Below are positions 11,238 to 37,828 of a DNA stretch of 64,000 nucleotides, in pieces. This stretch comes from Defluviicoccus sp. GTDB lineage: Bacteria; Pseudomonadota; Alphaproteobacteria; MPNO01. The stretch lies in the NCBI GenBank assembly GCA_028820505.1, contig JAPPIT010000034.1, positions 25,565 through 89,564 of the forward strand. Reading direction: 5' to 3'. The notes under the pieces are model-generated. The model saw only the letters and a program-made list of their open reading frames with translations. It was not told the origin of the DNA and searched no databases. Position 1 is the first letter of the stretch. Each line of letters opens with the position of its first letter. A program made the position numbers and the translations under genes.

Positions 11238-11366
11238 GAACCGCATCTCTGTCGAGAGTCCGTCGACCTTACCCGGCTTGCACCGTGCCTCGCATCGCAC
11301 TCATACTCGACCCGATACGGGGGCGATAACGGTATCGTCGGAATGAAGCAGGGGAGGTGCGGGATG

Positions 11367-12506: not shown

Positions 12507-12528
12507 CCGCCCGCCCGAGGGACGGCGC

Positions 12529-16535: not shown

Positions 16536-16543
16536 GCGACGCC

Positions 16544-18826: not shown

Positions 18827-18837
18827 GCGTACCCCCT

Positions 18838-19674: not shown

Positions 19675-19699
19675 GGGCCGTTCTCCCTCCGCTGGTCGC

Positions 19700-21022: not shown

Positions 21023-21186
21023 CTCTCGATCCCTCACGAGTCGATTGCGTCGTCGAATATCTTGAACCCGCCAGCCCAAGACCGCCAGAGGCGGTTCACA
21101 CAAGTCCGGACGCCGGAGTAGTTTTCCATCGAGGCGATGCACCCCGACCCAGGCGGAAAACACGTTGCCCGGCGAGGAGACGAGAC

Positions 21187-22518
21187 ATGACGCACCCCCA
21201 GCTCGGGCCGGAACGGCAGGCGTGGTTCGACAGGGCCGTCTCCCTGATCGACGAGGAGCGCATCCACCGTCTGGCGTTCGAGCTCACCGCAATCCACAGC
21301 CCGACCGGACGCGAGCGCGCGGCAAGCGAATACATGGTGGCCCGGCTTGCCGAGGCGGGCCTCGAGTCCTGGTACCAGCCGATGGGCGAGGCATCGGGCA
21401 ACGCGGCCGCCAGGCTGCGGGGAAGCGGCGGCGGGCCGAGCCTGCTGCTCTACGCGCCGATAGACACCCATCTCGAGGCCGATCGGGAAACCGACATCCC
21501 GTGGGTCGGCCCCGGGCTCCGACAGGACATGGTTCCCGAGCCGGTGGTGCGCGACGGGCTGATCATCGGGCTCGGCGCCGCCAACCCCAAGGCGATGGTC
21601 GCCACCCAGACGGAAGCCGCCCGCGTGATCGCCGAGGCCGGCATCCCGCTCACCGGCGAGCTGCTGGTCGGGTTCGCCGGTGGCGGTATGCCGGTCGACC
21701 TCGCAGCGCCAGGAAACCGAGGACTGTCGGACGGCGTCTTCCACCTCCTGACCCGCGGCGTCCATGCCGATTTCGCGCTGGTCATGAAGCCGGGAAACGC
21801 GGTCTATTACGAGGAGCCCGGGCTATGCTGGTTCAAGGTGTCGGTCAGGGGCACGATGGGATATGCCGGAATCGCCCGAGGCGTTCCGGGCTTTCGCAGT
21901 TCGATCGTGCCGGCGGCGACGGTGATCGCCGAATTGGAAAACTGGCTCCCGGGCTATACCGAGCGCAACAGTTCGGGCCAGGTGATGCCGCAGGGCTGGT
22001 TGGCGGCGGTGCACGGCGGATGGCCCGATCGGGTGGCCTTTCCCTCAGCGACCACAGAAATCCATCTCGACATCCGCTGCAATCCGCGGACGCCGCCCGC
22101 GGATGTAGCCGCCCAGTTCGGCGCGGCGATCGACGACATCCGCGCGAACCATCCCGAATTCGATCTCGACTGGGAGATGACCGCGGCGATCCCCGGAGCG
22201 AGCACCGACCCGGACAGCTGGATCGTCCGGTCCGCGATCGCCGCGTGGGAGGCGGTCGAAGGACGAGCCCATGAGGCGCCGCGCCGGACCAGCGGCCAGA
22301 CCGACATCTCGACCATCCGCAATCTCGGCATCCCAACCGCGCGCACCGGCTGGGTCAGCGTGCCGGAAGCGACGCCCGAGGAATTCCGGGAGGGCTTGGG
22401 CGGCATGGGGGTCACCAGCGCCTCCGACCTCGCACATACCTGCCGAAAGCTGGTCTATTCCATCATCGACACTTGCACCCGGACGCGCGGGGAGGTGGGC
22501 TGCATCGGCAGGCCATGA
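21187..22518 (+). CDS. M20-family metallo-amidohydrolase/peptidase
   Basis: 443 aa; M20 motifs (LLLYAPIDTH…; GIG…); divergent from the other M20 gene. Confidence 0.8.
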   Translation: MTHPQLGPERQAWFDRAVSLIDEERIHRLAFELTAIHSPTGRERAASEYMVARLAEAGLESWYQPMGEASGNAAARLRGSGGGPSLLLYAPIDTHLEADRETDIPWVGPGLRQDMVPEPVVRDGLIIGLGAANPKAMVATQTEAARVIAEAGIPLTGELLVGFAGGGMPVDLAAPGNRGLSDGVFHLLTRGVHADFALVMKPGNAVYYEEPGLCWFKVSVRGTMGYAGIARGVPGFRSSIVPAATVIAELENWLPGYTERNSSGQVMPQGWLAAVHGGWPDRVAFPSATTEIHLDIRCNPRTPPADVAAQFGAAIDDIRANHPEFDLDWEMTAAIPGASTDPDSWIVRSAIAAWEAVEGRAHEAPRRTSGQTDISTIRNLGIPTARTGWVSVPEATPEEFREGLGGMGVTSASDLAHTCRKLVYSIIDTCTRTRGEVGCIGRP

Positions 22519-22672
22519 GGGTTCCTCCAATCCTGACCTTATCGAACGGTGGGCGGGCAACGATGGAATCCGCATCGATGACGCCGGTGTTTCGCGGGGG
22601 CAGGCCAACGAGGCGCGGCGCTTCGAGTTCGTCAAGGAACCGCTCACCGCTCCGGCGCTCGGGACGTCTTGA

Positions 22673-22990
22673 AAGCTAGCGCCGGCCGGCAAGCGGGATC
22701 GCCCGACCGGGAGGTCCGGGCCGGTCGAGCGCGTCATCTTCCACATTCCTGAGAACGGCTTCTGTGTGCTCAGGACCCGGGCGCGCGGCCATCGCGAGCT
22801 GGTGACCGTGGTCGGCCACGCCGCGACCGCACCCACGGCCAGGACTTCCGGGCGCGCTTCATCCGCACCGCCGCGCCCACTTCGGTGGAGGGCATCGAGA
22901 AGTATCTCGGTTCGGGCATGATCCAGGGCATCGGTCCGGTCTACGCCCGCAAGCTGGTCCGCGCGTTCGGCGACAAGGTGCGCGAGAAGT
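22673..22990 (+). pseudogene. remnant of the N-terminus of a RecD2-like (ATP-dependent RecD-like) DNA helicase
   Basis: Frame 2 encodes …PTGRSGPVERVIFHIPENGFCVLRTRARGHRELVTVVGHAA, then frame 1 encodes DRTHGQDFRARFIRTAAPTSVEGIEKYLGSGMIQGIGPVYARKLVRAFGDKV. Both match the conserved N-terminal region of alphaproteobacterial RecD2-type helicases, with about 15 residues missing and a frameshift at the junction. No start codon (in-frame TGA at 22670), and no helicase motifs follow. Confidence 0.6.
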
Positions 22991-23281
22991 CCACTTGCCG
23001 GGCTTGCGAGAAGATCAGCCAGCCGCCGGCGCCCCTCCACCCGACGCCGCAGGGCCGGCTGCGCCACGCCGACCGCCGGCTTGGGCCGGAAACCATCACT
23101 GGATCAGCGTTCGAGTTGGACAATGCGCCGGAGCAGGTCATTGGCATGGATACGTCGAAGTCGATGATCGGACCCGCGCCTGACGCCGAACGGCCTCCTG
23201 TCGGCCGGGCCCGGAATGCAGCGAAGTATGGAGGACGCAATCCAGAAATCCGCCTCGAATCTGTCTGTCCCGGACTTCGAT

Positions 23282-23374
23282 CTAGAAATATGCGACATGG
23301 AAGAAGGCGACCACCACGGCGACCGCGAGGACGACAAAGGGCAGAAAGGGCAGCAAATTTCGGAGGAAACGCAT
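23282..23374 (-). CDS. candidate 30-aa single-TM small protein (MRFLRNLLPFLPFVVLAVAVVVAFFHVAYF)
   Basis: ATG 5 nt after the TauE stop on the same strand; uniformly hydrophobic core flanked by charged ends; below the track size cut-off. Could be chance. Confidence 0.25.
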   Translation of the reverse strand: MRFLRNLLPFLPFVVLAVAVVVAFFHVAYF

Positions 23375-23382
23375 GGCGGTGC

Positions 23383-24474
23383 TTACAGCCTGAACGGCAA
23401 TTCCACGAAAAATGCAATGACATAAAGCGCACCGGCGAGACCGGTGATGCCTCCCAGCATCAGTTTCAGAAGATGCTCCGGAACGAAGCGCTGGGTCTTG
23501 GACGCGCACCACGCGCCGAGGATTCCGCCGGAAGCGGCGAAGCACCCCCACGCCCATTCGGGCGCGATGACCACGCCGGAATATCGGGGAACGACGACCG
23601 AATAGGTGAACAGCCCTACGGCGGACAGCACGATCACATATGGGATGGTGGCGGCGACGAGGACGTACATGGGCAGACGGTAGATCGCCGAGAAAATCGG
23701 CACCAGCAGGAACCCGCCGCCGACGCCGAGAGCGGAGGAAACGATGCCGACGGCCAATCCCGTCACCGTGAGCATCCGCTTGGAGATGCGCCAGCGCTCC
23801 CCCCAGTATTCTATGGTGATGCGGCCGGCGGCACGCGATGCGGTCACGATGGCTTCGTTCGCCGGGATGCCGGACGGCGTCTTGCCCTCGGCCTGTCGTT
23901 GCGCCGCCATCCGGTGGAACCTGGCTTCCAGCCCGGTGCCTGTCTTGCGCTCGCGATAGCCGCGGCCTGCTGCCAGGCAAAGGTGGGACCCGGCCACGAC
24001 AAGCGCGATACCGACGGCGAAAGTAAACGGTTCGACATCCGACAGGACGGACACCCGGATGAATGGGCCGATCAGCCCGCCGGCGATGCCACCGAGGCAA
24101 ACCCACTTGGCAAGGTCGAAATTGAACTGGCGGTTCCGCCGGAAGCCGAACAGCGCTCCGAACGGGTTGAGGAACGTGAGCAGCTGCGTGGTGGGCGTCA
24201 CGCTGGGCGCGGTGAACTGGAGGACGGACATCGTATATGGCAGGGCGAAAATCCCCGCCGCCTCGCCGACCACCGCCATGGTGTAGCCGGTCCAGAAACC
24301 CATCCAGATCAGATGCCAGATCGGAACCCGGACGCCGGCCAGCGGGAAAGGGGCATCGGCACCCGGCAGGAACCCGTGCTGCAATTCGGCCGCGACGAAA
24401 CCGAGCCCGAGGACGACCGCGATCAGGGGCAGTTGTTCTCTCAGGAACTCTTTCAGGATGGGGTGGGCGTTCAC
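23383..24474 (-). CDS. TauE/SafE (TSUP, DUF81) family membrane exporter, putative sulfite/sulfonate-anion exporter
   Basis: 363 aa with two 4-TM repeats carrying the G-rich motifs GVGGGFLLVP / GLAGALY typical of TSUP proteins, split by a cytoplasmic insert; last large gene of the LysR-divergent operon. Confidence 0.75.
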   Translation of the reverse strand: MNAHPILKEFLREQLPLIAVVLGLGFVAAELQHGFLPGADAPFPLAGVRVPIWHLIWMGFWTGYTMAVVGEAAGIFALPYTMSVLQFTAPSVTPTTQLLTFLNPFGALFGFRRNRQFNFDLAKWVCLGGIAGGLIGPFIRVSVLSDVEPFTFAVGIALVVAGSHLCLAAGRGYRERKTGTGLEARFHRMAAQRQAEGKTPSGIPANEAIVTASRAAGRITIEYWGERWRISKRMLTVTGLAVGIVSSALGVGGGFLLVPIFSAIYRLPMYVLVAATIPYVIVLSAVGLFTYSVVVPRYSGVVIAPEWAWGCFAASGGILGAWCASKTQRFVPEHLLKLMLGGITGLAGALYVIAFFVELPFRL

Positions 24475-24486
24475 TTGACCCGGATG

Positions 24487-25896
24487 TCAGGATCGATGGG
24501 AATCGCTCGGTCCGTGGAGACGAACGATATCGGCATCGTCGATCGACCGGATCCCCGTTTCCAAATGCTCCCGCGTGAACGCATCCATCGAGACGCCCAC
24601 GGGTTCGCCTCCGACCACCGCGGGGCGCCCGGCAACCACCGTCGCAACGATATTGGCCCGGTCGTAGTAACGCACCAGTTCCCACACGAAATCCCAGGAT
24701 GGCAGAACTTCCGGAGACTCCATTTCGAGGACCAGGAAATCCGCCTCCAGCCCCGGTTCGAGCGCGCCGGTGACCGCGCCGAGACCGGCCACCTGCGCCC
24801 CCGCCCTGGTCGCCGCATCGAGCCAGATCCAGCCGGCGCCGCAGGAAAAATCGTCGTTGGGCATCCCATAGGCCAGACGCTGACAGACCTCCGCCGCATC
24901 GAGCAGACGGAATGCGTCGTTGCGCGTGGCGTCGGTGCCGAGCCCGATGCGGATACCGCGGCGGGCGTAATCGAGGGCGGGGGCCACGCCGTTGCCCTTC
25001 CACTGGCTGGCCACCGGGTTGTAGGACACCGCGGTATCCGTATCGCCGAGGATGACGATTTCGTCGCCGGTGACCAGCGCCGCGTGGGCGATCAGCGTTG
25101 TCGGCCCGAGGGCGCCGAGCTTGTTGAGATATTCGATCGGTCGGCAGCCTTCCCGCTCGATACAGCGATGGACTTCCGGCGTGTGCTCATTGGCATGGAT
25201 CTGGAAGACGATGCCCCGTTCCGCGCAATAATCCGACAGGCATTTGATCATCTCGCCGCTGTTCGACTGCACGGTGCCGCAGGCAAGGGACGGCGTGACG
25301 TTGCGTCGCCTCGCCGTCCGCGCGACGTGGTCGTCGGCGGTTCGCAGCGCATCGTCGACGGTCGACGCGGCCGCCGGTTTCGTCGCGTCGGTCTCGAAAT
25401 CGGACAGGTCGTAGACTCCGGTCGACGAGACGAGCCGCAAACCGGTTTCCTCGGCGGCTCTCTGGATGGCGTCGGTGTGGTCGACGCCGCGGATGCCGTG
25501 ATCGACGATCGTCGTGAAACCGCCGCGCAGCGCCTCGAAGAAGGTCCATTTGGCGGCGATGTACGCTGTTTCGGGGGTCGACGCTTCCTCGAGCGGCATC
25601 CATATCCGCTTCCACATCTGGGCCGGCTCGCCGCAGGTGATCGCCTTGGCGAAGGGTTCGGTGACATGGTGATGGGTATCGACGAACCCGGGCACGATCG
25701 CCCGTTTCTCCAGGCGAATGGTCGGGATTTTCGGATCGACGGTTGACTCGCGCCCGGACGTGGGTTCGATGGCAAGAATCTTGCCGTTCTCGACCGCCAT
25801 GACCGCATCGCGGATCGGACCGTCCGGTCCCAGAATAAGGTCGGGGCGCAACGCGTACGCCCCGACCGAACCCAGACTCTCGAGACCGTGGGTCAC
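24487..25896 (-). CDS. amidohydrolase-superfamily metal-dependent hydrolase (ATZ/TRZ / cytosine-deaminase-like), paralog 1
   Basis: HxH metal motif (VDTHHHV), HANEH and GLGTD motifs; GTG start 25896..25894 overlaps the SBP stop (GTGA); about 45% identity by eye to the paralog at 28533..29963. Confidence 0.8.
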   Translation of the reverse strand: MTHGLESLGSVGAYALRPDLILGPDGPIRDAVMAVENGKILAIEPTSGRESTVDPKIPTIRLEKRAIVPGFVDTHHHVTEPFAKAITCGEPAQMWKRIWMPLEEASTPETAYIAAKWTFFEALRGGFTTIVDHGIRGVDHTDAIQRAAEETGLRLVSSTGVYDLSDFETDATKPAAASTVDDALRTADDHVARTARRRNVTPSLACGTVQSNSGEMIKCLSDYCAERGIVFQIHANEHTPEVHRCIEREGCRPIEYLNKLGALGPTTLIAHAALVTGDEIVILGDTDTAVSYNPVASQWKGNGVAPALDYARRGIRIGLGTDATRNDAFRLLDAAEVCQRLAYGMPNDDFSCGAGWIWLDAATRAGAQVAGLGAVTGALEPGLEADFLVLEMESPEVLPSWDFVWELVRYYDRANIVATVVAGRPAVVGGEPVGVSMDAFTREHLETGIRSIDDADIVRLHGPSDSHRS

Positions 25897-26867
25897 TTCA
25901 GATCGACCCGGTCGCTCGCCAGCGCCTTCAGGAATTCGCCGCGGAGAAACGGGCGGTAAAGCGCGCGCGTCGACTTGACGCCCTTGATCGAGCCCCGGCT
26001 CGCGATCCACGCGCCCTCGCGCACCATCAGGTCGAGAAGGTTCTCCTCCAGCGACATCCGATGGTGATAGTTGGACCAGGCGGCCTTGATGTAGTCCATC
26101 TTGAACCGGCCCTTGGTGACGCGGTCCACGGCCATCTGGCTTTCCGCGGGATCGGCCTTGACCAGCTTTTCTCCCTCCAACAGCGCCGCGAGCACTGCGC
26201 TTACTGTTTTCGGATTCTTGTCGATCATCTCCGCAGTGCCGGCAAAGATGAACCGCGTGCTGTAGTTGCTGATGCGGAATTCACGGTAACGGTCGCCGAG
26301 CGCTCGTTTGGCACCGCCGTAAAAGGACGGGAACATCGCCGCCGCATCGACATCGCCGCGGACCAGCGCCGAGACGATATCCGGCGGCGCGACATTGACG
26401 ATTTCGGCCGTCACGCCCGCCTTCTTCAACAGGTCGGAAAGCATGAAGTGGACGTTGGTTCCGATAGTCGTGCCGATCTTGTGGCCGGCCAGCGCCTTGA
26501 TCGATTTGAGGTCCACCTTCTCGTTGGAAATGATTCGGCCGGCTCGGTACTGGGACATCTCGGCCAGCACGCCGAACTTCAGACCCCGCATGGCCCCGAT
26601 CACCGCTGGAAACTCGGCCATCAGCGCGAAATCGAGCTGTCCCCCGATCATGGCCTCGAACGCGGACCGCCCGGTGCGGAACGGGATCGCCTTGGCCTCC
26701 AGCCCATGCTTCTTCCACAGATTCTTGTCGATCGCCTGGGTCATCTGGGGAACGTCCAGATAAGGCCCGCCGCCGATCGTGATCTTGGTCTCTTGCGCCG
26801 ACACCGACATCGTCGCGGCAGCGACGACGGCGAGGCCGGCCACCGTTCCTGTCGTTAACCTAAGCAT
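25893..26867 (-). CDS. ABC transporter substrate-binding protein, NitT/TauT (SsuA/TauA/NMT1-like) family
   Basis: 324 aa with signal peptide (…AAATMSVSAQE); NMT1/THI5-like SBP sequence. Confidence 0.8.
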   Translation of the reverse strand: MLRLTTGTVAGLAVVAAATMSVSAQETKITIGGGPYLDVPQMTQAIDKNLWKKHGLEAKAIPFRTGRSAFEAMIGGQLDFALMAEFPAVIGAMRGLKFGVLAEMSQYRAGRIISNEKVDLKSIKALAGHKIGTTIGTNVHFMLSDLLKKAGVTAEIVNVAPPDIVSALVRGDVDAAAMFPSFYGGAKRALGDRYREFRISNYSTRFIFAGTAEMIDKNPKTVSAVLAALLEGEKLVKADPAESQMAVDRVTKGRFKMDYIKAAWSNYHHRMSLEENLLDLMVREGAWIASRGSIKGVKSTRALYRPFLRGEFLKALASDRVDLK

Positions 26868-26940
26868 CTTCGGTCTCCTCGGTTTTGGTGTCCAGGTTAC
26901 GCACTCTCGCTACAGACTCTCCATTCCCGGCCCCTTCTCA

Positions 26941-27756
26941 TCATTCCGCGCTGTCGCCGGACTCGCCCGGCCGCAGAAGCCTCATGATCCGGTTTCGGTT
27001 ATTGAGGAAATCTTCGGTGACCTCGTCGACCTTCCTGGGGCGCGGCGTATCGACGTCGATCGATTCGACGATGCGCCCGGGCCCGGCCGACATCACATGC
27101 GCCCAATCCGAAAGCAGCAGCGCCTCGTCGACGTCGTGGGTCACGAACAGCACCGTCGCCCGATGCATGTCCCAGACACGCAGCAGGAGTTCCTGCATCG
27201 CGACGCGCGTCTGGGCGTCGAGGGCGCCGAAGGGTTCGTCCATCAGGAGGACCTTGGGTTCCGATGCAAAGGTCCTCGCGAGCGCCACCCGCTGCTTCAT
27301 GCCGCCGGATAGCTGCCCGGGGAAAGTTCTCGCCCGGTCTTCCAGCCCCACTTCGCGCAGCGCCTCGATGGCGCGGTCACGCCGTTCCGCCTTCGGCAAC
27401 TGCAGCCGTTTCAGGGCAAACTCGACGTTTCCGATCGCCGTGAACCAGGGGAACAGCGCATATTGCTGGAACACCACGCCGACCTCGGGGTTGATTCCGG
27501 TCACCATGTCTTGGTCGATCCTGATGGTGCCGCCGGAGATCGGAACGAAGCCGGCGATGGCGTTCAGTATTGTCGACTTGCCGCAGCCCGACGGCCCGAT
27601 GAGGGCAGTGAACGAACCCGGCTCCAGAATTAGATCGACGTTCTTCACCGCGTCGAGCGGCTCGCCGCCGGGCAGCTTGAAGGTGATCGTCAGGTCTTCG
27701 ATCTCGACCTTGCCTAAGCCGTTGGATGAGTCTGCGATGCCGGTCGGGTCGCTCAC
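26941..27756 (-). CDS. ABC transporter ATP-binding protein (NitT/TauT family)
   Basis: Walker A GPSGCGKST, LSGGMKQRVALAR, LLMDEP; GTG start overlaps the permease stop (ATGTGA). The track ORF of 531 aa is a read-through into the permease gene in another frame. Confidence 0.85.
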   Translation of the reverse strand: MSDPTGIADSSNGLGKVEIEDLTITFKLPGGEPLDAVKNVDLILEPGSFTALIGPSGCGKSTILNAIAGFVPISGGTIRIDQDMVTGINPEVGVVFQQYALFPWFTAIGNVEFALKRLQLPKAERRDRAIEALREVGLEDRARTFPGQLSGGMKQRVALARTFASEPKVLLMDEPFGALDAQTRVAMQELLLRVWDMHRATVLFVTHDVDEALLLSDWAHVMSAGPGRIVESIDVDTPRPRKVDEVTEDFLNNRNRIMRLLRPGESGDSAE

Positions 27757-28508
27757 ATCTGCTCCCAGTGAACCAGCTTGTTGCCGACGACGACGAAGAA
27801 CTGGTCGAGCAGGGCGCCGAGGATGCCAAGCTCGATCAACCCGACGAACATCCGGTCGGTGCGGACATAGTCGCGGGCGTCCTGCAGCCTGAACCCGATC
27901 CCGGCGGACGCGCCGGAAAGTTCCGCCGCAACCAGGGAGAGAAACGCCAGCGCCGCGCCCAGCCGCAGCCCGACGACGATATGCGGGGCCGCCGCCGGGA
28001 TGATCACCTCGAAGAACTCGCGGGTCCGCCGCGCCCCGAGAGAGCGCGCGGCGCGGATATAGGTCAGCGCGACGTGCGCGGTCCCGTGGTGAGTGTTGAG
28101 CCACACCGCCAGGAAAACCGTATAAGCGATGACGAAGTATTTCGATCCTTCGCCGATGCCGAACCACACGATCGCCACCGGCACCAAGGCGATCGCGGGA
28201 ATGGGTCTCAGGAGATTGAGAAACGGCCCGAGCGCGTATGCGAACAACCGGGTCCGCGCGGTCATCAGCCCGACCAGGATGCCGAGGCTGGCACCGATCA
28301 GGAATCCGACGGCCGCCCGCCCCAGCGACACGGCGAGGTCGCTGAACAGGATGCCGTCGTCGTATAGTTCCAACGCGGCGATGAACACCGCATGCGGCGT
28401 CGGGAACAGCTCTTGGCTGATCAGACCCGACACCGCGACCAGCCACCAGACGATCGTCACGCCGATCAACGATAATGCCACGTTGAGAACTCTTCCGAGC
28501 GGTTTCAT
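27753..28508 (-). CDS. ABC transporter permease (NitT/TauT family)
   Basis: 251 aa, 6 TM segments, EAA loop (…RAARSLGARRTREFFEVIIPAAAP…). Confidence 0.85.
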   Translation of the reverse strand: MKPLGRVLNVALSLIGVTIVWWLVAVSGLISQELFPTPHAVFIAALELYDDGILFSDLAVSLGRAAVGFLIGASLGILVGLMTARTRLFAYALGPFLNLLRPIPAIALVPVAIVWFGIGEGSKYFVIAYTVFLAVWLNTHHGTAHVALTYIRAARSLGARRTREFFEVIIPAAAPHIVVGLRLGAALAFLSLVAAELSGASAGIGFRLQDARDYVRTDRMFVGLIELGILGALLDQFFVVVGNKLVHWEQM

Positions 28509-28532
28509 CGTTTCGGTGTTTCCCTTCGCCGC

Positions 28533-29963
28533 TCACGCGGTCCCTCTGCGGCCGCGCGCGGCGCGATGCTTGGCCGACGTTCCGTGGCGTCGGACGATGG
28601 GCGCGTCACGGACCGTCCGAATCGCCGCCGGCAGCTGATCCTTGAGAAAACGATCCTGGTCCCAGCCGGTGGCCCGCCCGTCCTGCATGACCATGGCCCC
28701 ATCGATCACCACCGCCCTGATCTGATCGCGATTGTAGTGACGCACGAGGTCCCATTCGAAGTCCCAGGACGGAAGGACTTCGGGGGCCTCCATGTCGAGA
28801 AGAAGGAAATCGGCGCGGCAGCCCGGCGCCAGGCGGCCGGCGACGTCGGCCAGGCCCGAGACGTCGGCGCTGCCCTTCGTGGCGGCATCCACCCAGGTCC
28901 AGCCGGCGCCGCACGAGAAATCGTTCACCCGCATTCCGAACGCGATTCGCTGGCAGCTCTCCGCCGCGTCCAGCATCCGGAAACCGTCGCTGCGCGTGCT
29001 GTCCGTTCCGAGACCCAGCCGGACTCCCCGTTCGACATAGGTGCAGGCCGGCGACACGGCATCGCCCTTCCAGTGCGAGGCGACAGGGTTGTAACTGACC
29101 GCGCTTTCCGTCGAACGGATGAGTTCGATTTCGGACTCCGTCACGAGAGTCCCGTGATGCAGCAGCGTATGGCGGCCCAGCGCGCCGCAATCGGCGATGA
29201 ACTCTATCGGGCGGCGGCCATGCTCGACGACGCTCGCGTGGACTTCCGGAATGTGCTCGTTGGCGTGAATCTGGAACAGGGCGTTCCGTTCCGCGCAGAA
29301 ACCGGCCAGCTCCCCGATCAGCTCCTTCGAAGCCCCTTCCACGCCGGAAACGCACAAAGACGGGTAGATGCCGGGTTCGCGCTCGCAAAGCGCCATGTGG
29401 TCCTCGGCCCGCTTCAAGGCCTCGTCGATGTGTTTCAGACCCGAACCGCTACCCGAACCATCCGGTTCGACCGGCCGGTTTACGGCGCCCGTGCTCGAGA
29501 CCAGGCGTACCCCGGTTTCGCGCGCCGCCCGGTGGATGGCTTCGGTCTTCTCGCGGTTGATGATCGCGAAGTTCACGACCCCGGTGAAACCGCCGCGCAG
29601 GGCTTCCAGGAACATCCATTTGGCGCATACGTAGCTGAGCTCCGGATCGAGCCGGCCTTCCAGGGGAATCCAGATTCGCCGCCATATCTGGGACGGCTCG
29701 CCGCCGATGATCGATTTCCCGAAACCCTGCCCGAGATGGATATGCGCGTCGATGAATCCCGGAATGACGGCCCGGCCCGGGAGCGGCACGACATCGGTCC
29801 GTGGATGGGTTTGCGCGAATTCCGCTCGGTCGGCGACGGCGGCAATCGCCCCGTTCTCGACCAGCATGACGACGTTTTCTCTGGCACCATCGGGGGCAAG
29901 GAGCAGATCGGGCGCAATGGCGTAGCGCTGCGCCGCGAAGATATCCGCCATCGCGGTACTCAT
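28533..29963 (-). CDS. amidohydrolase-superfamily metal-dependent hydrolase, paralog 2
   Basis: IDAHIHLGQ (HxH), HANEH, GLGTD and a C-terminal block near-identical to paralog 1 (VSYNPVASHWKG…NDFSCGAGWTWVDAAT…ADFLLLDMEAPEVLPSWDFEWDLVRHY); start set at ATG 29963 so the N-terminus aligns with paralog 1 (YAIAPDLLLAPDG vs YALRPDLILGPDG). The track's longest ORF starts at TTG 30062. Confidence 0.8.
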   Translation of the reverse strand: MSTAMADIFAAQRYAIAPDLLLAPDGARENVVMLVENGAIAAVADRAEFAQTHPRTDVVPLPGRAVIPGFIDAHIHLGQGFGKSIIGGEPSQIWRRIWIPLEGRLDPELSYVCAKWMFLEALRGGFTGVVNFAIINREKTEAIHRAARETGVRLVSSTGAVNRPVEPDGSGSGSGLKHIDEALKRAEDHMALCEREPGIYPSLCVSGVEGASKELIGELAGFCAERNALFQIHANEHIPEVHASVVEHGRRPIEFIADCGALGRHTLLHHGTLVTESEIELIRSTESAVSYNPVASHWKGDAVSPACTYVERGVRLGLGTDSTRSDGFRMLDAAESCQRIAFGMRVNDFSCGAGWTWVDAATKGSADVSGLADVAGRLAPGCRADFLLLDMEAPEVLPSWDFEWDLVRHYNRDQIRAVVIDGAMVMQDGRATGWDQDRFLKDQLPAAIRTVRDAPIVRRHGTSAKHRAARGRRGTA

Positions 29964-30095
29964 CGCCTTCGGTAGCGGCGCGGAGAATGCCGTTCCATCG
30001 CCTTGGTGCCGATGCTGCATGCCGTCCATTGATGTTACAGTGAAACAATCCATAGATTCCAATAAAGGATTTTTGCTAGTCTATAGTTTGTTTCT
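29964..30095. promoter_or_regulatory. AT-rich divergent promoter/operator region between the LysR gene and the amidohydrolase-ABC-TauE operon
   Basis: Locally AT-rich (about 70% AT) within a 65%-GC context; inverted repeat ATAGA(30052-30056)-N23-TCTAT(30080-30084) plus the palindrome CTATAG at 30081-30086; classical position for LTTR autoregulatory and activation sites. Confidence 0.45.
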
Positions 30096-31031
30096 ATGAA
30101 TATCGAAATTGGCCGATCAATGAATTTTCGGCAACTGGAGTGTTTCAGGCAGACTCTCGCCACTGGGACAGTGACCGGTGCGGCCAAGGCGATGGGGATT
30201 TCCCAGCCTTCGGCGAGCATTCTCGTCGCAAACTTGGAACGCGAACTCGGCTTCGCTCTCTTCAAGCGGATCAACGGTCGCCTGTCGGCGACACCCGAAG
30301 CTCAATATTTGTGGCGCGACGTCGAGCGGACGCTCGAGAGCGTGGAGCTCACCATCCAACGCGCCCGGCAGATCCGCGACCAGCAATTCGGCAACCTCGT
30401 CGTCGCCACCTATCCGGACATCGCGGTCGATTTCCTGCCCCGCATCGTCAGCGACTTTCGCGCCGATCGCCCCGACTTGCAGGTTCGAATCCTCGCCCGC
30501 CGCTCGCAGATGATGCAGGGGCTGTTGCCTACCCAACTCTACGACCTCGCCATCGTCGAATGGCCGATCGAACTTGTCTCGGTCGAGGTCGAAGAGTTCG
30601 TTTTCCCTTGCGTTTGCGGATTGCCGGAAGGCCACGCGCTGGCCGATCGGCCTTCCATCGGACCGGCCGATCTCGACGGGGAGCCGTTCGTCTCCCTGTT
30701 GCCCGAACATATGGTCTATCCGCAGACCGAAAGCGCGTTCGCGGCCCATGGTGCGTCCTGGAATATCGCGATCGAAACCCAGACCATGGAATCGGTATCC
30801 GCGTTTATTCGTCACGGTGCCGGGGTCGGGCTGCTCGATCCGTTCACGGCACAACGATATGCACGCGACGGCATCGCCGTCCGCCGGTTCGATGCGACGA
30901 TCAGCTACAGGATCGCCCTGGTCTTCCCGCGCGACAGGCTCCGTTCCGTCATCCTCGGTTCCTTCGCAGAAAAATTGCGCGCGGCATTCGAGTCCGTGAA
31001 GCGGATCGGCAATCCGCAGGCGCCTGGCTAG
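30096..31031 (+). CDS. LysR-family transcriptional regulator
   Basis: N-terminal HTH (MNFRQLECFRQTLATGTVTGAAKAMGISQPSASILVANLERELGFALF) and C-terminal LysR substrate-binding domain; divergent from the operon; alternative start at 30120. Confidence 0.85.
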   Translation: MNIEIGRSMNFRQLECFRQTLATGTVTGAAKAMGISQPSASILVANLERELGFALFKRINGRLSATPEAQYLWRDVERTLESVELTIQRARQIRDQQFGNLVVATYPDIAVDFLPRIVSDFRADRPDLQVRILARRSQMMQGLLPTQLYDLAIVEWPIELVSVEVEEFVFPCVCGLPEGHALADRPSIGPADLDGEPFVSLLPEHMVYPQTESAFAAHGASWNIAIETQTMESVSAFIRHGAGVGLLDPFTAQRYARDGIAVRRFDATISYRIALVFPRDRLRSVILGSFAEKLRAAFESVKRIGNPQAPG

Positions 31032-31047
31032 GCAGGTCCGGCCTGCC
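31031..31047 (+). terminator. possible weak intrinsic terminator after the LysR gene
   Basis: GGCAGG-tccgg-CCTGCC hairpin starting at the last base of the stop codon, followed 18 nt later by a short T-run (tcgtttcgg). Confidence 0.25.
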
Positions 31048-31385
31048 CCGGCCGGGCTGAGTGTCGTTTCGGAGATCCCCGGAGCTTCGATTTCTGCGGC
31101 GAAATTTCGCGGCGCTGTCGCTCGACCTCGTGTTCGCGAACTTGAGCGGCGACGCGCCTCTCTCAGCGCAGCGCATGGCGGATCGCCGGCCCGGACACCG
31201 CCGCACCCCACTCGATCCTTGCCGCCGTGAGCGGCGGACCCGCACCACCCGGCTCCGGTCCGCCGCCGGGACCGGTCTGCAATCCGGCTGGCTCAACCAC
31301 GATCCGGCTGCGGCCACGCTTCATCAGATAACCGCCGCGTGGGATCTTCAGGACCCTGTGTTCGACCGGCGACCGCAGCTGACAG

Positions 31386-32996
31386 CTATAACAGGATTCC
31401 GATCCTCTTGCTCAGACTGAGGTAGTTCCAACCGTCTTTGTGCCGGTAGCGCAAATCGTCGACATATGTGCGTACCAGATGCAGACCGAGACCTTCCACG
31501 ATCGTTTCTTCCTCAATCGTGTCCGGACCGGGCTGCAACATGAAAGAATCGGGGCTCAGTTCACCGCCCCGATTCACGAAGCGGATTGCAAGGCTCCGCT
31601 CTTCGTCGCCCATCTCAAGGTGGACCTCGATCCCGTGCGTGCCGACATCGTCATGGCTGCGCTCCACGATGTACATGATCGTCTCTTCGACACAGAGCTG
31701 TATCTGGAACCGGTCCGGTTGCGGAAGCCCGTGCTGCTCGGCGAAATCGTCGATCGCCTCCGCGACCCGCTCCATCTCACCGCGGACCTCGCGCACGGTC
31801 AGGCTGAAGCTTCGGGCCGGTGCCGAGGACGAGTCCGAGCGATTCGCGGCTGTCGACGTCCCCTCGCGGCCCTTTTCCGTCCGGAGTCCTGTCCGCCGCG
31901 CGCCGGACGTTCCATCCCCGCGCACGAGTGCGCTCAACGCCGCGGCATCAATCGCCGGTGTTGTCGACTTGGGTGGCCAGCTCCGGTCCCCGGCCTTCAC
32001 GACCAAGCTCTTGATCGCTTTCCTCAGATCGACCACCAGCGGCGTCTGCCGCAGGACGTCGAATGTCCGCGAATGCTCCGGGAGGCACAGATGCCGGTAG
32101 AGCATCTGATAGGACACGACGTCATCGGCGGCGAGGTCGAACACGTCCATCGGCGAAGCCGGGTCTTCCGGCGAAAGCCCCGCGGCGCGGAGCAGGGCGG
32201 CGAGCGCCCCGCGGCTTATCCGGTCTTCGTCGAACCCGTCCTCTACTCTGTGCAGGGCGCCCATCATGGCGAGGTAGTTTGAGTTCAGCGGCTGGCTGAA
32301 GCTCCACAGCGGGCGCGTCGGGTTGGTGAGGTAGCGACGCTCACCGCCGCGGTGAGGCCGCAGCAGGGCGGCGTTGCGATGGGGAAAGCGGTCGAACAGG
32401 AGCAAGGTTTCCGAGTGCTCGATCGCGCCCTTCACAAACGACCAGCCGACGAACTGGTTGATCCTGCGCCGCTCGGCCGGCGCCTCCGCGACGAGGTCGG
32501 CGCTCATGCGCGCCGTCTTCTCGACGCAGAGCTCTTGCAGTTTCAGATCCTCCATGTGGCACAGGGGAAAATATATCCAGAGCCGCTCGATGGGGTTGTA
32601 GTGCGCCAGCTCCCGATCCGCCTCGCAGGCCTGCCGGGACAGCGAAGCGGCCACGAGATCGTTCGCGTAGGCCAGAGCCGTGCCGCGATAGACGCATCGC
32701 GGAAACTGGTCGAGGACGATCAGTTTCGCCAGAACGCCCTGCGGCGTGTCCCAGACCGGATCGTCGAAAAACCGCTCCACCCCCTCGCGGTGCATCTGGT
32801 CACACCACATGCGTTGCGCCCGGAGAGCGTTCGGATCCACGGTGTTTCTGGCGAACGGTCCGGCCCGCCACCGTCGCATCGCCTGCCGCCAGTTCTCGCG
32901 GGAAGCGTCGGCCGGCGACCGCAAGCGACCGAGCCAGAATTCCAGCACCGCCTCCGGAGAGCGTTCCGCAATGCCAAGGTGCTCGACGGCGCTCAT
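31386..32996 (-). CDS. DUF924-domain protein fused to a C-terminal HATPase_c anti-sigma-factor-type Ser/Thr kinase-like domain
   Basis: N-terminal half carries DUF924 hallmark blocks (LIVLDQFPRCVYRG…; FPLCHMEDLKLQELCV). The C-terminal about 130 aa resemble RsbW/SpoIIAB-type GHKL domains (…LCVEETIMYIVE…GLGLHLVRTYVDD…). They are joined by a low-complexity S/T/A-rich linker in one continuous 536-codon frame; SD GGGAGAAG upstream of the ATG at 32996. Confidence 0.55.
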   Translation of the reverse strand: MSAVEHLGIAERSPEAVLEFWLGRLRSPADASRENWRQAMRRWRAGPFARNTVDPNALRAQRMWCDQMHREGVERFFDDPVWDTPQGVLAKLIVLDQFPRCVYRGTALAYANDLVAASLSRQACEADRELAHYNPIERLWIYFPLCHMEDLKLQELCVEKTARMSADLVAEAPAERRRINQFVGWSFVKGAIEHSETLLLFDRFPHRNAALLRPHRGGERRYLTNPTRPLWSFSQPLNSNYLAMMGALHRVEDGFDEDRISRGALAALLRAAGLSPEDPASPMDVFDLAADDVVSYQMLYRHLCLPEHSRTFDVLRQTPLVVDLRKAIKSLVVKAGDRSWPPKSTTPAIDAAALSALVRGDGTSGARRTGLRTEKGREGTSTAANRSDSSSAPARSFSLTVREVRGEMERVAEAIDDFAEQHGLPQPDRFQIQLCVEETIMYIVERSHDDVGTHGIEVHLEMGDEERSLAIRFVNRGGELSPDSFMLQPGPDTIEEETIVEGLGLHLVRTYVDDLRYRHKDGWNYLSLSKRIGILL

Positions 32997-33327
32997 GTCT
33001 CGGGTTGCTTCTCCCTGCCTTGTCGGTCAATACATCGTATGCGTGTCGAGGAGGGAAGCAAAGCACGCCGGATGTCTCACGCCGCCGCGCACGGAGGGGG
33101 ACTTCCTCTTCGCAGCCGTACGCATGGCGATAGTGGGGGAAGGTCGAGTTTTCCCTCGGGACTGCATCATTCCGGTAGCGACCGCGTGGGTTCCGTCCCC
33201 CTGGCATCCGAACAGCCGCCTCGACGAACTCCTGCCCTGGAACTTCGACAGTTCGTCAATCTGACATACCGGGTGGGGCGCTCGTGGCGCTTTCCATGAG
33301 ACGCGGCAGCCGCGAGCTTGAACCCCG

Positions 33328-33344
33328 TTAGGTTCGTAACCTAA
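33328..33344. promoter_or_regulatory. perfect palindrome TTAGGTT-CGT-AACCTAA in a 385-nt intergenic region
   Basis: 7-bp perfect inverted arms with a 3-nt spacer; AT-rich (operator-like, not terminator-like); sits between the lipoprotein gene stop and the DUF924 gene promoter region. Confidence 0.3.
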
Positions 33345-33382
33345 AGGTCAACGCCGGGAACCGGCCGGCCTCGATCGGGTGC

Positions 33383-34282
33383 CTACTGCTGCCGCCTCGC
33401 GCCGAAGGCGGCGATCATGTTGGAATGCTCGAAGATGCCCGCCGCCTCGGCGTGGCCGGGACCGTGGAAGCCGCCCTGGATGCGTGCGCCCGACTGGCCT
33501 CTTGCGAAGGTCCCGTCCGGCCCGACCTCGAGGTCGGAGAAGATCACCGCCTCGACGCCATACGCCGTGCCGCGGTCGATGTTCTTGATGCCGCTGAGCC
33601 CGGCATCGAGTCCGCCGGCGCTCATGTCGTAGTTGAGCGCCGCCGTCCCGACCAGCCGGTCGCCGCGACCGTCCCCGGCGATGGGCGTTCCCACCATGAT
33701 GCCGAGCCAGGTGGCGGACCCGGTCAGCGGGCCATCGGTGAGATCTCCCAGGGCGAGCGCGTAGGAGTAAGCGGACTCTACCTCGCCCCCGATCGCTCGA
33801 TCGTTGAAGAGCCCAAAGGAGCCATGCTCCATCCAGGCGCCGAGCGAGGTCCGGTCCAGGCCCATATGCCGCCCGGTCTCCGCCAGGAGCGTGATGCCGT
33901 GCGCGGAGCCGATGGCCTCGGCATCGCCCCGCAAGACCGGGGAGGTGGCGAGATCCCTCGCGTCCGTCTCGCCGGTCACGGGGTCGAGTACTTCGCATCG
34001 CGGACCGGCGCACTCCGACAGCAACCGGAACCTGCGGGCGTCGTCCGGAAGCACGGCCTCCACGTGCATCGTGGAGAGGATCAGGGAATCGGCCCGCGCG
34101 GAATTCTCCTGCTGACGCGCCTGCTGCGCCTGTCCGGTCTCCATCGGCGCGGACAGGCCGGTCAGTTCCCTGATGTCGTCGAGCCCGAGGGCCGGCCGCG
34201 AGCCGGAACCGCCGTTCCCGCCGCAGGCCGCGAGGGAAAGGATGGCTGCCGTCGCCATGACGCAGGCAAGATGGACTCTCAT
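33383..34282 (-). CDS. surface/periplasmic lipoprotein with TbpB/fHbp-like C-terminal beta-barrel (lipoprotein_5-type)
   Basis: Signal peptide with lipobox (ILSLAAC); Gly-rich mature N-terminus; C-terminal motif …IQGGFHGPGHAEAAGIFEHSNMIAAFGARRQ matching the 'GxFYGp…E.gG.F…aFGakr' end of TbpB-like handle/barrel domains. Confidence 0.5.
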   Translation of the reverse strand: MRVHLACVMATAAILSLAACGGNGGSGSRPALGLDDIRELTGLSAPMETGQAQQARQQENSARADSLILSTMHVEAVLPDDARRFRLLSECAGPRCEVLDPVTGETDARDLATSPVLRGDAEAIGSAHGITLLAETGRHMGLDRTSLGAWMEHGSFGLFNDRAIGGEVESAYSYALALGDLTDGPLTGSATWLGIMVGTPIAGDGRGDRLVGTAALNYDMSAGGLDAGLSGIKNIDRGTAYGVEAVIFSDLEVGPDGTFARGQSGARIQGGFHGPGHAEAAGIFEHSNMIAAFGARRQQ

Positions 34283-34344
34283 GTCGGTGTCCTCCGGAAA
34301 GATCGATCGACAGGGCGGGCCGGCGCATCCACGGTCGAGGCCCT

Positions 34345-34503
34345 GCCGGTCGATTCGGCGACGAAGTGATGGCCGCGACGCTGATCGACCGGTTGGTCCA
34401 CCACTGCCACATCGTCAACATCCGGGGCAACTCATACCGCGTGCGGGAGCGACAGAACCTGCTGCAATCCGGCTCGGATCGGCGCCGCAAAAAGGCCGCG
34501 TAG
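34345..34503 (+). mobile_element. istB: IS21-family istB (transposition helper ATPase) 3'-terminal remnant
   Basis: Frame encodes …GRFGDEVMAATLIDRLVHHCHIVNIRGNSYRVRERQNLLQSGSDRRRKKAA*, matching the conserved IstB C-terminus (F.GD..M..A.LDRL.HH.H….G.SYR…). Nothing of istA or the rest of istB is present. It is followed at 34523-34538 by the palindrome GATAACC-G-GGTTATC and a related copy ACCCGGTTACC (34552-34562), possibly end-repeat relics. Confidence 0.55.
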
Positions 34504-34869
34504 CACTCGCCGGCCCGCTGTGGATAACCGGGTTATCTCGCCAGACTCGTCGCCGGTCGCTGCGCCAACCCGGTTACCCAAAGCTCCACCGAGACCAACA
34601 CCCCCACCACCGCGCCTGGAGGACGACCGCAACCTCAAAGTGAGAAATTCTCAGTCGGAATTGACAGCAAAAGAACTTTCTCACATGCAGAACTCCGATG
34701 CGCCTATCCCTAGTGAGACATCCGGGTTAAAGCCTGTCCGTTTGGGGTGGAGCCGCCGACGCGGCACCGCACGGGGATGCGCCTCAGGCAGACCGCCGGA
34801 CCCTCGAGACCGCGCTGCGCCCAAGTGCGGTCAACGCCGGTCGCGCCCTCGCAGTAGAGGGATCCCAGC

Positions 34870-35235
34870 GTCTCGCCTTCTCCAGATGCCCCATCACGAT
34901 ATAGCCGGTGCCATGGGCCTGAAAGAAGTGCTGCACCCGGACGATGCTGGGATGATCGAAACGCGCGAGCGTCCGGGCCTCGCCGAGAAAACGATCCAGC
35001 CCCCACAGATAATCCTTCTCGTCCTCTTCCGATCTGGGCAGGACGGTCCGGTCCGCTTCCCGTGCCGCCGTACCCGCCGGCATGTATTCCTCGATGGCGA
35101 CCACCTGCTGGAGCAGGGTGTTCCAGCCGCGATAGGTGATGCCGAACCGCCGTGACCGATCACCCCGTCGATCTCGAAATCCTCCAGCCGCGTGCCCGGC
35201 GGCAAGGCGTCCCTGTCGACCGATCGCTCGGTCAT
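34870..35235 (-). pseudogene. Hanks-type Ser/Thr protein kinase, N-terminal fragment with frameshift
   Basis: Reads MTERSVDRDALPPGTRLEDFEIDGVIGHGG (Gly-loop) then, after a -1 shift in a T-run near 35146 (ggttcggc vs expected ggtttcggc), …VAIEEYMPAG…FLGEARTLARFDHPSIVRVQHFF…GYIVM… (kinase subdomains II-V). Homology stops around 34880, so it is also 3'-truncated, about 370 nt from the IS21 remnant. Confidence 0.5.
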
Positions 35236-35298
35236 TTTCGCCCCGGATCGGGCAAAGGGTTCGAGTGTCTCACCGGGTCGGGTCCTGCCCCGTAGATC

Positions 35299-35688
35299 CT
35301 ATCCCGCCCGCTTCTTCGCCTCTGCGGTCAGCCTGTCCGCCCCGGTCGCCAGCTTCTTCGTCGCTGCCGTCAGCTTCCTCGCCTGTTCCGCACTCCTTCG
35401 CGCGTTTGCGGCCAGCCTTCGCAACTCCGCGATCCTGCGGTCGATCTTCTCCACCGCGCGGGCTTGCGGGCTCGATTCCCTCAGATTCTTGAGATGAGCC
35501 GCGGCTGTCTTCGTTTTCCTGTCCTTGAGGGCGGCCTCCGTCCATTGCTCGTATTTCCCGAACACCCGTCGCAACCCCCCGCGCGCGCGGACGTTCTCCG
35601 GTTCGAGGGCCTGCGCCTTCCGATAACAGTCGATCGCGGCCCGCGCGCCATCTTCGGTCAGGCTGTCCGGGGGAAACGGCTCTCGCAC
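35299..35688 (-). CDS. hypothetical TPR-like/coiled-coil protein (or out-of-frame C-terminal extension of the PP2C gene)
   Basis: C-terminal 129 codons of a longer GC-junk ORF look protein-like (…AIDCYRKAQALEPENVRARGGLRRVFGKYEQWTEAALKDRK…AELRRLAANARRSAEQARKLTAATKKLA…); only a GTG start overlapping the PP2C end by 30 nt is available. Confidence 0.25.
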   Translation of the reverse strand: MREPFPPDSLTEDGARAAIDCYRKAQALEPENVRARGGLRRVFGKYEQWTEAALKDRKTKTAAAHLKNLRESSPQARAVEKIDRRIAELRRLAANARRSAEQARKLTAATKKLATGADRLTAEAKKRAG

Positions 35689-36665
35689 TCCGCGACCTGC
35701 CTGTCGCCCGGGTTCGAGGGGGCCAGCCAGTCCGCGTCCAGCGTGCCGGCCGCGATGCCCGCCAGCAGGCCGACCATCAGCACGGCGGCGAAGCTCGCCA
35801 ACCGGCGGCCGGACCGCGCCGCCGCCTCGGGTTCGCCGGCGGCGCCCACCGGATCCGTGCGGTGAGCGGCCCGATCGCCCGCCGCGGAGTCGCCGGACAG
35901 CAACAGGAAGGTCACGTTGTCCTGGTTCGGCCCCGCCACGCGCTCGACCGTGGCGAGCAGCGCGCTGGCGGCGTTTTCCGCGCCGCCGCCCGCCCGGACG
36001 AGACAGGCTTCGATCTCTTCCTCCGAAAGGGTCTCCAGCCCGTCGCTCGCGATCAGCAGGTAGTCGCCGGGCCGCAGGCGGCAGGAACGCTCGGCGCGGT
36101 CGACGAGGCTCGCGGGCACGCCCGTCACCGCGGAACGCAGCATGTTGCGCCGGCGGTCGCCCAGCGCCTCCTCTCGGGTCATCTCGCCGTCGCGGACGAG
36201 GGATTCGAGGACCGGCATCATGGAATGGTCCTCGTTCAACCGCTCCAGCCGGCCGTCGGCGAACAGCCACATCGGCGAGTCCCCGACGCTCAGCCAGGAC
36301 AGGCGCCGCCCGTCATAGAGCGCGGCCACGACGGTGCTGCCCATCCCCGCGAGCCGCGGATCGTTCTGTTCCTGCTCCGCCAGGCTGGCCGTGGCCTGCG
36401 CCAGGCACTCGCGCAGACGCGTACCGATCGAGCCGGTCGAACTCTCGAATTGCCGGATGAATGTCCGGACCACGGTATCGCTGGCGATCGCTCCCCCGGC
36501 TTCGCCCCCCATACCGTCGGCGAGCACCATGAGCAGCGCGGGCGGATCCCCGGGTTCGACCGCCTCGACCTCCAGCGCCCCGGAATCGTCCTCCTGGTAG
36601 CGCCGCCCGCCTTGCCATTCCCGGTGCGCCAACGGCCACCCGGGTACCAGGGGAGCCTCCGTCAT
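35658..36665 (-). CDS. PP2C-family Ser/Thr protein phosphatase with C-terminal membrane anchor
   Basis: PP2C motifs (…YQEDDSG…VLADGMGGEAGG…SDGL…); C-terminal TM helix LASFAAVLMVGLLAGIAAG; start MTEAPLV at 36665. Confidence 0.8.
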   Translation of the reverse strand: MTEAPLVPGWPLAHREWQGGRRYQEDDSGALEVEAVEPGDPPALLMVLADGMGGEAGGAIASDTVVRTFIRQFESSTGSIGTRLRECLAQATASLAEQEQNDPRLAGMGSTVVAALYDGRRLSWLSVGDSPMWLFADGRLERLNEDHSMMPVLESLVRDGEMTREEALGDRRRNMLRSAVTGVPASLVDRAERSCRLRPGDYLLIASDGLETLSEEEIEACLVRAGGGAENAASALLATVERVAGPNQDNVTFLLLSGDSAAGDRAAHRTDPVGAAGEPEAAARSGRRLASFAAVLMVGLLAGIAAGTLDADWLAPSNPGDRQVAECESRFPRTA

Positions 36666-36698
36666 CGGTCGCGGCCGGCTCCTGCGTGTCAGATGAAT

Positions 36699-36720
36699 TT
36701 TCCGCATGGAATCCGCATGC
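36699..36720. repeat. tandem direct repeat TTCCGCATGGA / ATCCGCATGCC (11-bp period) in a divergent promoter region
   Basis: CCGCATG occurs twice exactly one helical turn apart, between the divergent PP2C and proline-racemase-family genes. Confidence 0.3.
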
Positions 36721-36874
36721 CTTCGATATGGCAAGGCCGTCCGCCTCGATCGATCCGTGGCGGAAGGTCGCATACATTGCAAACTGAGACACTACCCCCG
36801 GATACTTGTCCCGGTCGTGGGGCTTCATCTCGTTCTCGCCCCGACCGTCTGTTATGTACCGCGCGGACGCACCC

Positions 36875-37816: not shown

Positions 37817-37828
37817 CGGAGCGGCCCG

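Follow-up and report, generated by a model that had tools for sequence, protein, structure and literature searches.

RecD2 helicases (SF1B; TIGR01448) combine an OB_YrrC domain with an HHH region, AAA_30 and UvrD_C_2, and the version compared in this study is that carried on alphaproteobacterial conjugative plasmids and integrative elements. Integrative elements encode an integrase or recombinase and are flanked by att direct repeats, a tRNA gene being a frequent target; IS66 elements have terminal inverted repeats, an 8-bp target duplication and the accessory genes tnpA and tnpB. When the backbones of integrative or conjugative elements or genomic islands decay, they leave behind cargo operons and pseudogene scars.

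The locus described here lies within a 64-kb stretch of DNA that was analysed as a whole and is referred to below as the window. We assign a probability of about 0.85 to the reading that positions 22520-23051 are a non-functional mobile-element scar of ~530 bp that forms the left border of a 15.3-kb insertion. The scar is a mosaic of three pieces, each recognisable from other genomes: the end of a small ORF found ahead of recD2 on integrative or conjugative elements (orfX'), the beginning of recD2 itself (recD2') and an internal stretch of ~26 codons from an IS66 transposase gene (IS66'). As with the decayed backbones of integrative or conjugative elements and genomic islands, a strain-specific block is found between conserved neighbours, with fragments of backbone genes at one border and cargo that recurs beside integrases or transposases. 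The composition is mildly atypical in the cargo cassette and host-like in the rest of the insert. Unlike typical islands, the block has no integrase, att repeats or tRNA target, and its site is a spacer of ~6 nt between convergent stop codons.

Composition of the scar

The segments that make up the left edge of the insertion are as follows.

22520..22596, no strand assigned: edge segment of 77 nt, start of the insertion
22597..22672, plus strand: orfX', 3' remnant (~25 codons) of the ORF preceding recD2 (alignment, tblastx)
22669..22980, plus strand: recD2-like helicase pseudogene (tblastn, Pfam, NCBIfam, nucleotide alignments with L021 and L023)
22971..23051, plus strand: internal fragment of an IS66-family transposase gene (megablast, tblastn, NCBIfam, junction alignment)

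The identity of the helicase fossil was established with WP_166309238, a 733-aa "ATP-dependent RecD-like DNA helicase" of Bradyrhizobium septentrionale (plasmid pBs162S2b), as the tblastn query against the whole 64-kb window. Residues 14 to 50 matched 22715-22825 with 73% identity and residues 67 to 118 matched 22825-22980 with 77% identity (joint E value of 3e-32), the two peptide stretches being in plus-strand frames 3 and 2. The remaining 615 residues, including everything past residue 118, had no match in the window. The Pfam domain OB_YrrC (PF23139) was found above its gathering score (E value of 1e-9; a score of 38.7 bits, the cut-off being 27) over profile positions 5-52 of 76, interrupted by a 49-nt deletion, and the NCBIfam profile helicase_RecD2 (TIGR01448) matched at positions 1-103 of 713 with an E value of 6.8e-16 and a score of 57.5 bits against a cut-off of 500. 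By blastn, 497 plasmid records matched 22724-22980, the best of them being annotated RecD-like helicase genes (E value of 1e-18). As judged from these alignments, the match to recD2 is far beyond chance.

The anatomy of the fossil was read from nucleotide alignments with the closest copies, L021 and L022-L024. The pseudogene at 22669-22980 begins with the TTG start and corresponds to codons 1-118, covering the OB fold and a putative first helix-hairpin-helix, so that 16% of the gene is left, and it runs through three reading frames with two frameshifting deletions. Codons 1-17 (LKASAGRQAGSPDREVRAG) are kept in a third frame, starting from the TTG at 22669, which overlaps the TGA at 22670-22672 of the upstream ORF remnant; the identical TTGA arrangement is found in L021, and a start/stop overlap with the preceding ORF is seen in L021 to L024 as well as in intact relatives. 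These codons are followed by a 5-nt deletion located between 22715 and 22722, depending on the reference, and the 49-nt deletion (16 codons plus 1 nt) is at 22825/22826, past the position that corresponds to codon 50. Beyond 22979/22980, which corresponds to codon 118, the sequence is no longer homologous to recD2. The first GIGP hairpin (GMIQGIGPVYARKLV) is present, with a weak HHH_5 match (E value of 0.15), the later HhH modules are deleted, and both the SF1B motor core (AAA_30, Walker A/B) and the C-terminal UvrD_C_2/SH3 domains are lacking. Thus, although its N-terminal 118 codons align colinearly with RecD2, the fossil is a pseudogene and not a member capable of the family's function.

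In the remaining sequence, two motifs are altered at residues invariant in the relatives, GMIRGIGP to GMIQGIGP and FHNPENG to FHIPENG. Over 97 comparable intact codons the fossil was 90% identical to L021 at both the nucleotide and the amino acid level, giving a dN/dS of 0.26 that derives from just 28 differences; against more distant copies the ratio was 0.14-0.15, also from small numbers. Taken together, the dN/dS values and the invariant-site substitutions would fit a recent inactivation after a long functional history.

Much of the original prediction for this region was borne out, namely that two stretches in different frames match the N-terminus of RecD-like helicases, that some 15 residues are missing between them together with a frameshift (here the 49-nt deletion), and that no helicase domain follows. 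The homology search against RecD2 that it had proposed returned a significant helicase match. Its description of only the N-terminal ~100 codons was right as to the truncated N-terminus and needs revision as to extent, since the equivalent of ~118 codons was found, with two deletions. Two further statements needed correction in detail: that the gene has no start codon, as the TTG at 22669 survives in a third frame, and that the downstream sequence becomes the TauE operon, as the IS66 fragment at 22971-23051 comes in between.

Upstream of the fossil, orfX' ends at the TGA at 22670-22672, and its C-terminus (...NEARRFEFVKEPLTAPALGTS / ...FEFVKEPLTAPALGTS, followed by the stop) aligns with that of the upstream ORF of the relatives (...ERARQFELVKELLTSPALGTS / ...FELVKELLTSPALGTS, likewise followed by the stop). 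The identity by tblastx was 60% over 43 aa, and the ORF upstream of recD2 in L022-L024 has a length of 125 aa. A Bradyrhizobium plasmid copy of recD2 was without the upstream orfX, indicating that the orfX-recD2 pair is not universal. The edge segment at 22520-22596 had no match in the relatives, no homologue of its peptide in a protein search and no Rfam match; possibly the orfX remnant extends into it in a more diverged form.

Downstream, the IS66 piece encodes VREKSTCRACEKISQPPAPLHPTPQG, corresponding to codons ~165-190 of the ~550-codon TnpC. It was 86-88% identical over 74-80 nt to annotated IS66 transposase genes (megablast, E value of 4e-13) and was also matched by WP_100957203 in tblastn, while the NCBIfam profile transpos_IS66 gave an E value of 0.017 and 14 bits against a cut-off of 180. 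Homology to the reference IS66 element was confined to 22971-23050, and no other IS66 segment was found in the 64-kb window by tblastn. The fragment shares the CRxCEKISQPPAP segment with TnpC, a transposase that has an N-terminal zinc-finger region, but lacks the DDE domain, tnpA/tnpB, the terminal inverted repeats and the target duplication of IS66. The recD2' and IS66' pieces are joined within an imperfect microhomology, CGAnAnGGTG, at 22971-22980 (CGACAAGGTG in recD2 and CGAGACGGTG in IS66).

The possibility that this junction represents an IS end was considered and ruled out, because recD2 and IS66 are both joined at internal positions, which makes the junction a product of deletion or illegitimate recombination. 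Such internal-to-internal joins are the signature of illegitimate (microhomology-mediated) deletion and not of transposition at an IS end, and both ends of the IS66 piece are deletion junctions rather than IS termini.

The insertion site and its cargo

The two genes that flank the insertion are as follows.

21187..22518, plus strand: intact M20-family peptidase, last gene collinear with relatives (Pfam Peptidase_M20)
37829..38842, minus strand: luciferase-like monooxygenase, right flanking gene (Pfam Bac_luciferase)

The nearest genomes were MAGs named Defluviicoccus sp. or Alphaproteobacteria bacterium, and their 10-kb flanks were compared with the window. The peptidase was 87-92% identical in amino acid sequence to those of Defluviicoccus and other alphaproteobacterial MAGs. 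Five loci, L008-L012, were collinear with the window from ~11270 to 22519 at 86-92% nucleotide identity, with collinearity ending at 22506-22519. In L009, L010 and L014 the alignment jumps from 22506-22519 straight to 37819-37828 and onward, so the rearrangement junction postulated in the original prediction was found. The luciferase-like gene of L010 and L014 (87-88% amino acid identity) is intact and abuts the peptidase, with the two stop codons ~6 nt apart (~30 nt in L009) and the empty spacer located at 11323-11345 in L010 and 3395-3420 in L014. Only remnants of this gene are present in L008 and L009: in L009 (11360-11640) it is internally deleted, and in L008 (11330-16140) a different 4.7-kb ABC-transporter insert is followed by the first 39 luciferase codons. 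L011, L012 and L013 have unrelated sequence downstream of the peptidase. None of the genes of the 22520-37828 block was found within 10 kb of the peptidase in nine relatives.

In a neighbour-joining tree of the peptidase, the window groups with L008/L009 and L013, and L010/L014 form the next branch. Because the peptidase/luciferase adjacency, or its remnants, is found in lineages that bracket the window, the adjacency would be the ancestral state, making 22520-37828, on this comparative evidence, a derived 15.3-kb insertion between two convergent genes, with the scar as its left edge. The synteny comparison suggested in the original prediction thus gave a direct answer, the peptidase and the luciferase adjoining each other in relatives, and its view that at least one flanking block had been acquired holds for the right-hand block, which is absent from the site in relatives.

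The edges of the insertion were also searched for the hallmarks of site-specific integration. No tRNA gene was found in the window, no repeat of at least 9 nt was common to both insertion edges, and no target-site duplication or att-like direct repeat marks the insertion. No integrase-family match was found among nine scanned called ORFs of the insert and three further ORFs, and the proteins flanking two cassette copies elsewhere (L099 and L100, see below), including the integrase arm-binding fragment of L100 and excluding the integrase of L099, had no tblastn match in the window. The scar is present on the left edge only; the right edge, 12 nt from the proline-racemase stop to the luciferase stop, is clean.

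The cargo next to the scar is an 8.0-kb cassette with the following features.

23052..31050, minus strand: cargo cassette, 8.0 kb (identity to L100, L099, L101 and L102; Pfam; GC)
from 23052, minus strand: cassette tail of 226 nt, 3' of the small membrane ORF, common to L100
23282-23374, minus strand: 30-aa membrane ORF, directly after TauE
23383-24474, minus strand: TauE
24487-25896, minus strand: amidohydrolase
between the two amidohydrolases, minus strand: ABC substrate-binding protein, ATPase and permease
28533-29951, minus strand: second amidohydrolase
30120-31031, plus strand: LysR regulator, divergent

The cassette starts at 23052, one or two bases past the end of the IS66 homology (23050/23051). 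A contig from another metagenome (L100, ERZ24894577) was 96.65% identical in nucleotide sequence over exactly 31050-23052 and had unrelated flanks, and L099, L101 and L102 shared the core of the cassette at 86-89% nucleotide identity. With these copies, which were reached through a search with the adjacent amidohydrolase, the cassette is known from four other unrelated contexts at 86-97% nucleotide identity, three of the four lying next to pieces of integrases or transposases. L099 is flanked by an integrase gene and a gene of the HTH_17 (excisionase-like) type, L100 by an integrase arm-binding fragment together with a RES toxin gene, and L101 by IS3 and IS6 pieces with SMC-like ATPase genes. 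In L102 the flanks contain genes for TauD and a TRAP transporter. None of these four copies, and none of 74 metagenomic loci with TauE relatives, was found to have pieces of recD2 or IS66. The segment at 23056-23281, which is the cassette tail common to L100, had no plasmid match, no extra tblastx match to mobile-element loci and no Rfam match.

In composition the cassette deviates only mildly. Its GC content is 63.7% against 67-68% in the flanks, and its tetranucleotide correlation is 0.962-0.964, where 5-kb segments from other parts of the window give 0.966-0.990. Outside the cassette the insert resembles the host. Its right third (31051-37828) has a GC content of 67.8% and may not share the history of the cassette.

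Origin of the insertion and alternative readings

The closest recD2 DNA, L021, is situated among integrase, PRiA4, RecQ, topoisomerase, ParB_N, DUF2201 and RadC genes, the copies in L023 and L024 are beside a T4SS coupling protein and several transposases, and the plasmids that carry the Bradyrhizobium copies have been typed as conjugative. Because the nearest copies sit beside integrase, ParB and coupling-protein genes or on conjugative plasmids, an origin of the fossil in an integrative or conjugative element is supported, in line with what the original prediction had hinted.

These nearest recD2 copies are themselves decayed. In L021 the gene (10346-10646) is internally deleted, leaving a 125-aa N-terminal ORF followed by an 80-aa UvrD_C_2 fragment, and its breakpoint is just 9 nt upstream of that in the window. 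The closeness of the two breakpoints is probably a coincidence, helped by a short-query search that favours short matches: among the 120 matches listed in the search for relatives, all were of 181 aa or less, which is a property of the search and not of the biology.

In the preferred reading, an integrative/conjugative or plasmid-derived segment, with orfX-recD2 and a copy of IS66 on it and the cassette as its cargo, would have entered the spacer between the convergent genes. Microhomology-mediated deletions would later have removed the backbone, including the integrase, the transfer genes, the helicase core and most of IS66, and would have left the cargo and the ~530-bp remnant, itself without function. 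We infer that scar and cassette were transferred together; more than one event may have contributed to the insert as it now stands.

Whether the fossil could be an artefact was addressed with independent Logan assemblies of SRR10996926 and SRR10996925, which were 100% identical to the window. Among the SRR10996926 contigs, L007, which ends at 22801, covers the peptidase, orfX' and the 5-nt deletion, and the 49-nt deletion and the joins of recD2 to IS66 and of IS66 to the cassette all fall within L004, which runs from 22774 to 32165 and extends 9 kb past them. In SRR10996925 the contig begins at 22849. Each indel and junction is therefore contained within a single Logan contig, the only exception to single-contig coverage being the 28-nt overlap of L007 and L004 at 22774-22801. 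A mis-join across recD2 sequence repeated in the metagenome, with fossil and frameshifts as its artefacts, would be conceivable for a metagenome scaffold (the window comes from ROBB21-1_SAMN13943215_METAG-scaffold_566) whose Logan contigs end and start inside the most conserved part of recD2. Such a chimera is nevertheless very improbable given the contiguity just described, the fact that both halves are in-register pseudogene pieces of the same gene, and the return of the scaffold to its expected syntenic neighbour, the luciferase, after 15.3 kb. The NCBI contig JAPPLA010000061.1 (GCA_028819635.1), under which the sequence is also deposited, was identical over the compared range of 27829-48842, a range that leaves the fossil outside it, and the arrangement recurs on three or more long contigs. 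The history of the block could also be the reverse of the preferred one, the 15.3 kb being ancestral and lost by deletion in L009, L010 and L014, with the fossil as the decay of a long-resident element. The edges without att repeats, integrase or tRNA would suit this, as would the host-like GC of the right third and a site that is variable in the clade, L008, L011, L012 and L013 each differing downstream of the peptidase. We consider it unlikely because the adjacency or its remnants is found in two branches bracketing the window (L010 with L014, and L008 with L009), which would demand separate deletion events, every one of them sparing both stop codons, and because the genes of the block are missing near the peptidase in all nine relatives. 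Moreover, the cassette shares 96.65% identity with a copy whose surroundings are unrelated, as against ~91% between the flanking chromosome and its nearest relatives.

It is harder still to credit that the remnant has been kept for a function, whether as a small OB-fold/HhH protein, as a regulatory RNA, or as a terminator or insulator separating the peptidase from the convergent TauE operon. The start codon has survived, the dN/dS against L021 is 0.26 and not 1, and one promoter-like match was found at 23141-23168, yet the frame from the TTG at 22669 reaches a stop after 26 codons, the longest internal ORF (51 aa) is out of frame with the conserved parts, and no Rfam match or terminator-like site was found within the scar. 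A low dN/dS is in any case expected if most of the divergence predates the inactivation, and the value derives from 28 differences. The mosaic was also absent beside every other cassette or TauE copy seen. We therefore retain the reading of 22520-23051 as a non-functional scar.

The peptidase/luciferase spacer itself looks like a local hotspot of gene turnover, having been found in at least four states: empty in L010 and L014, with the 15.3-kb block in the window, with the 4.7-kb block in L008, and with the deleted luciferase in L009. It is conceivable, if rather doubtful, that the ~6-nt spacer is a recurrent exchange site in the Defluviicoccus-like clade and that the cassette moves as a discrete unit (23052-31050) by a mechanism without integrase or att sites. 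If the cassette does move in this way, the recD2'/IS66' mosaic would be the sole surviving trace of its vehicle.

On the preferred reading, the LysR-amidohydrolase-ABC-TauE cassette, and probably its neighbours, would have been acquired and not inherited, and the exact breakpoints given here should be useful for dating the arrival of the TauE-LysR cassette. The stored gene calls of the scaffold leave 22519-23227 empty; for gene callers, the ~530 bases would be pseudogene remnants rather than intergenic DNA or a small ORF. The scar offers a clean example of a mobile-element backbone lost by microhomology-mediated deletion, and it is ordinary pseudogene biology of gene acquisition with no new mechanism.

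Other features of the inserted block

Beyond the cassette, the insert contains the following features.

31051..37828, no strand assigned: remainder of the inserted block (Pfam, gene calls, relatives' flanks)
31386-32996, minus strand: DUF924-HATPase_c_2 gene (Pfam)
33383-34282, minus strand: 299-aa ORF (gene call)
~34700-35298, minus strand: Ser/Thr kinase pseudogene (kinase DNA matches)
near the kinase pseudogene and the PP2C gene, within 31051-37828: 129-aa ORF
35658-36665, minus strand: PP2C phosphatase, intact
36875-37816, plus strand: proline-racemase-family gene, last gene of the insert

The kinase is a second pseudogene within the inserted block and adjoins the intact PP2C gene and the 129-aa ORF. 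Its N-lobe can be read only by stitching three frames, after which it matched positions 2-89 of 263 of the Pkinase profile (E value of 2.7e-6), and its VAIK catalytic-lysine motif reads VAIE. Near the PP2C gene and the kinase remnants, the gene at 31386-32996 encodes a 536-aa product with an N-terminal DUF924 domain and a C-terminal HATPase_c_2 domain that is anti-sigma-kinase-like. Two distant relatives, L015 and L016, have weaker DUF924 matches (32-34% amino acid identity) downstream of their peptidase gene. When the gaps at 31032-31400 and 32990-33390 were translated in six frames, nothing was recognised by eye.

Two of the Logan contig ends (at 22774-22801, 22849, 32165 and 37664) are within the recD2 fossil, which suggests either low coverage or a k-mer in common with a further recD2 copy present in the sample.

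The 30-aa single-helix membrane ORF on the minus strand of the cassette (MRFLRNLLPFLPFVVLAVAVVVAFFHVAYF, 23282-23374) was absent from the stored gene calls of the scaffold. More than 30 metagenomic TauE relatives are followed by a counterpart in the corresponding place, with 46-60% amino acid identity and the motif LLPYLPFIVLALAV.VA.YH. The ORF looks as if it encodes a small, so far unannotated partner protein of this TauE subfamily.
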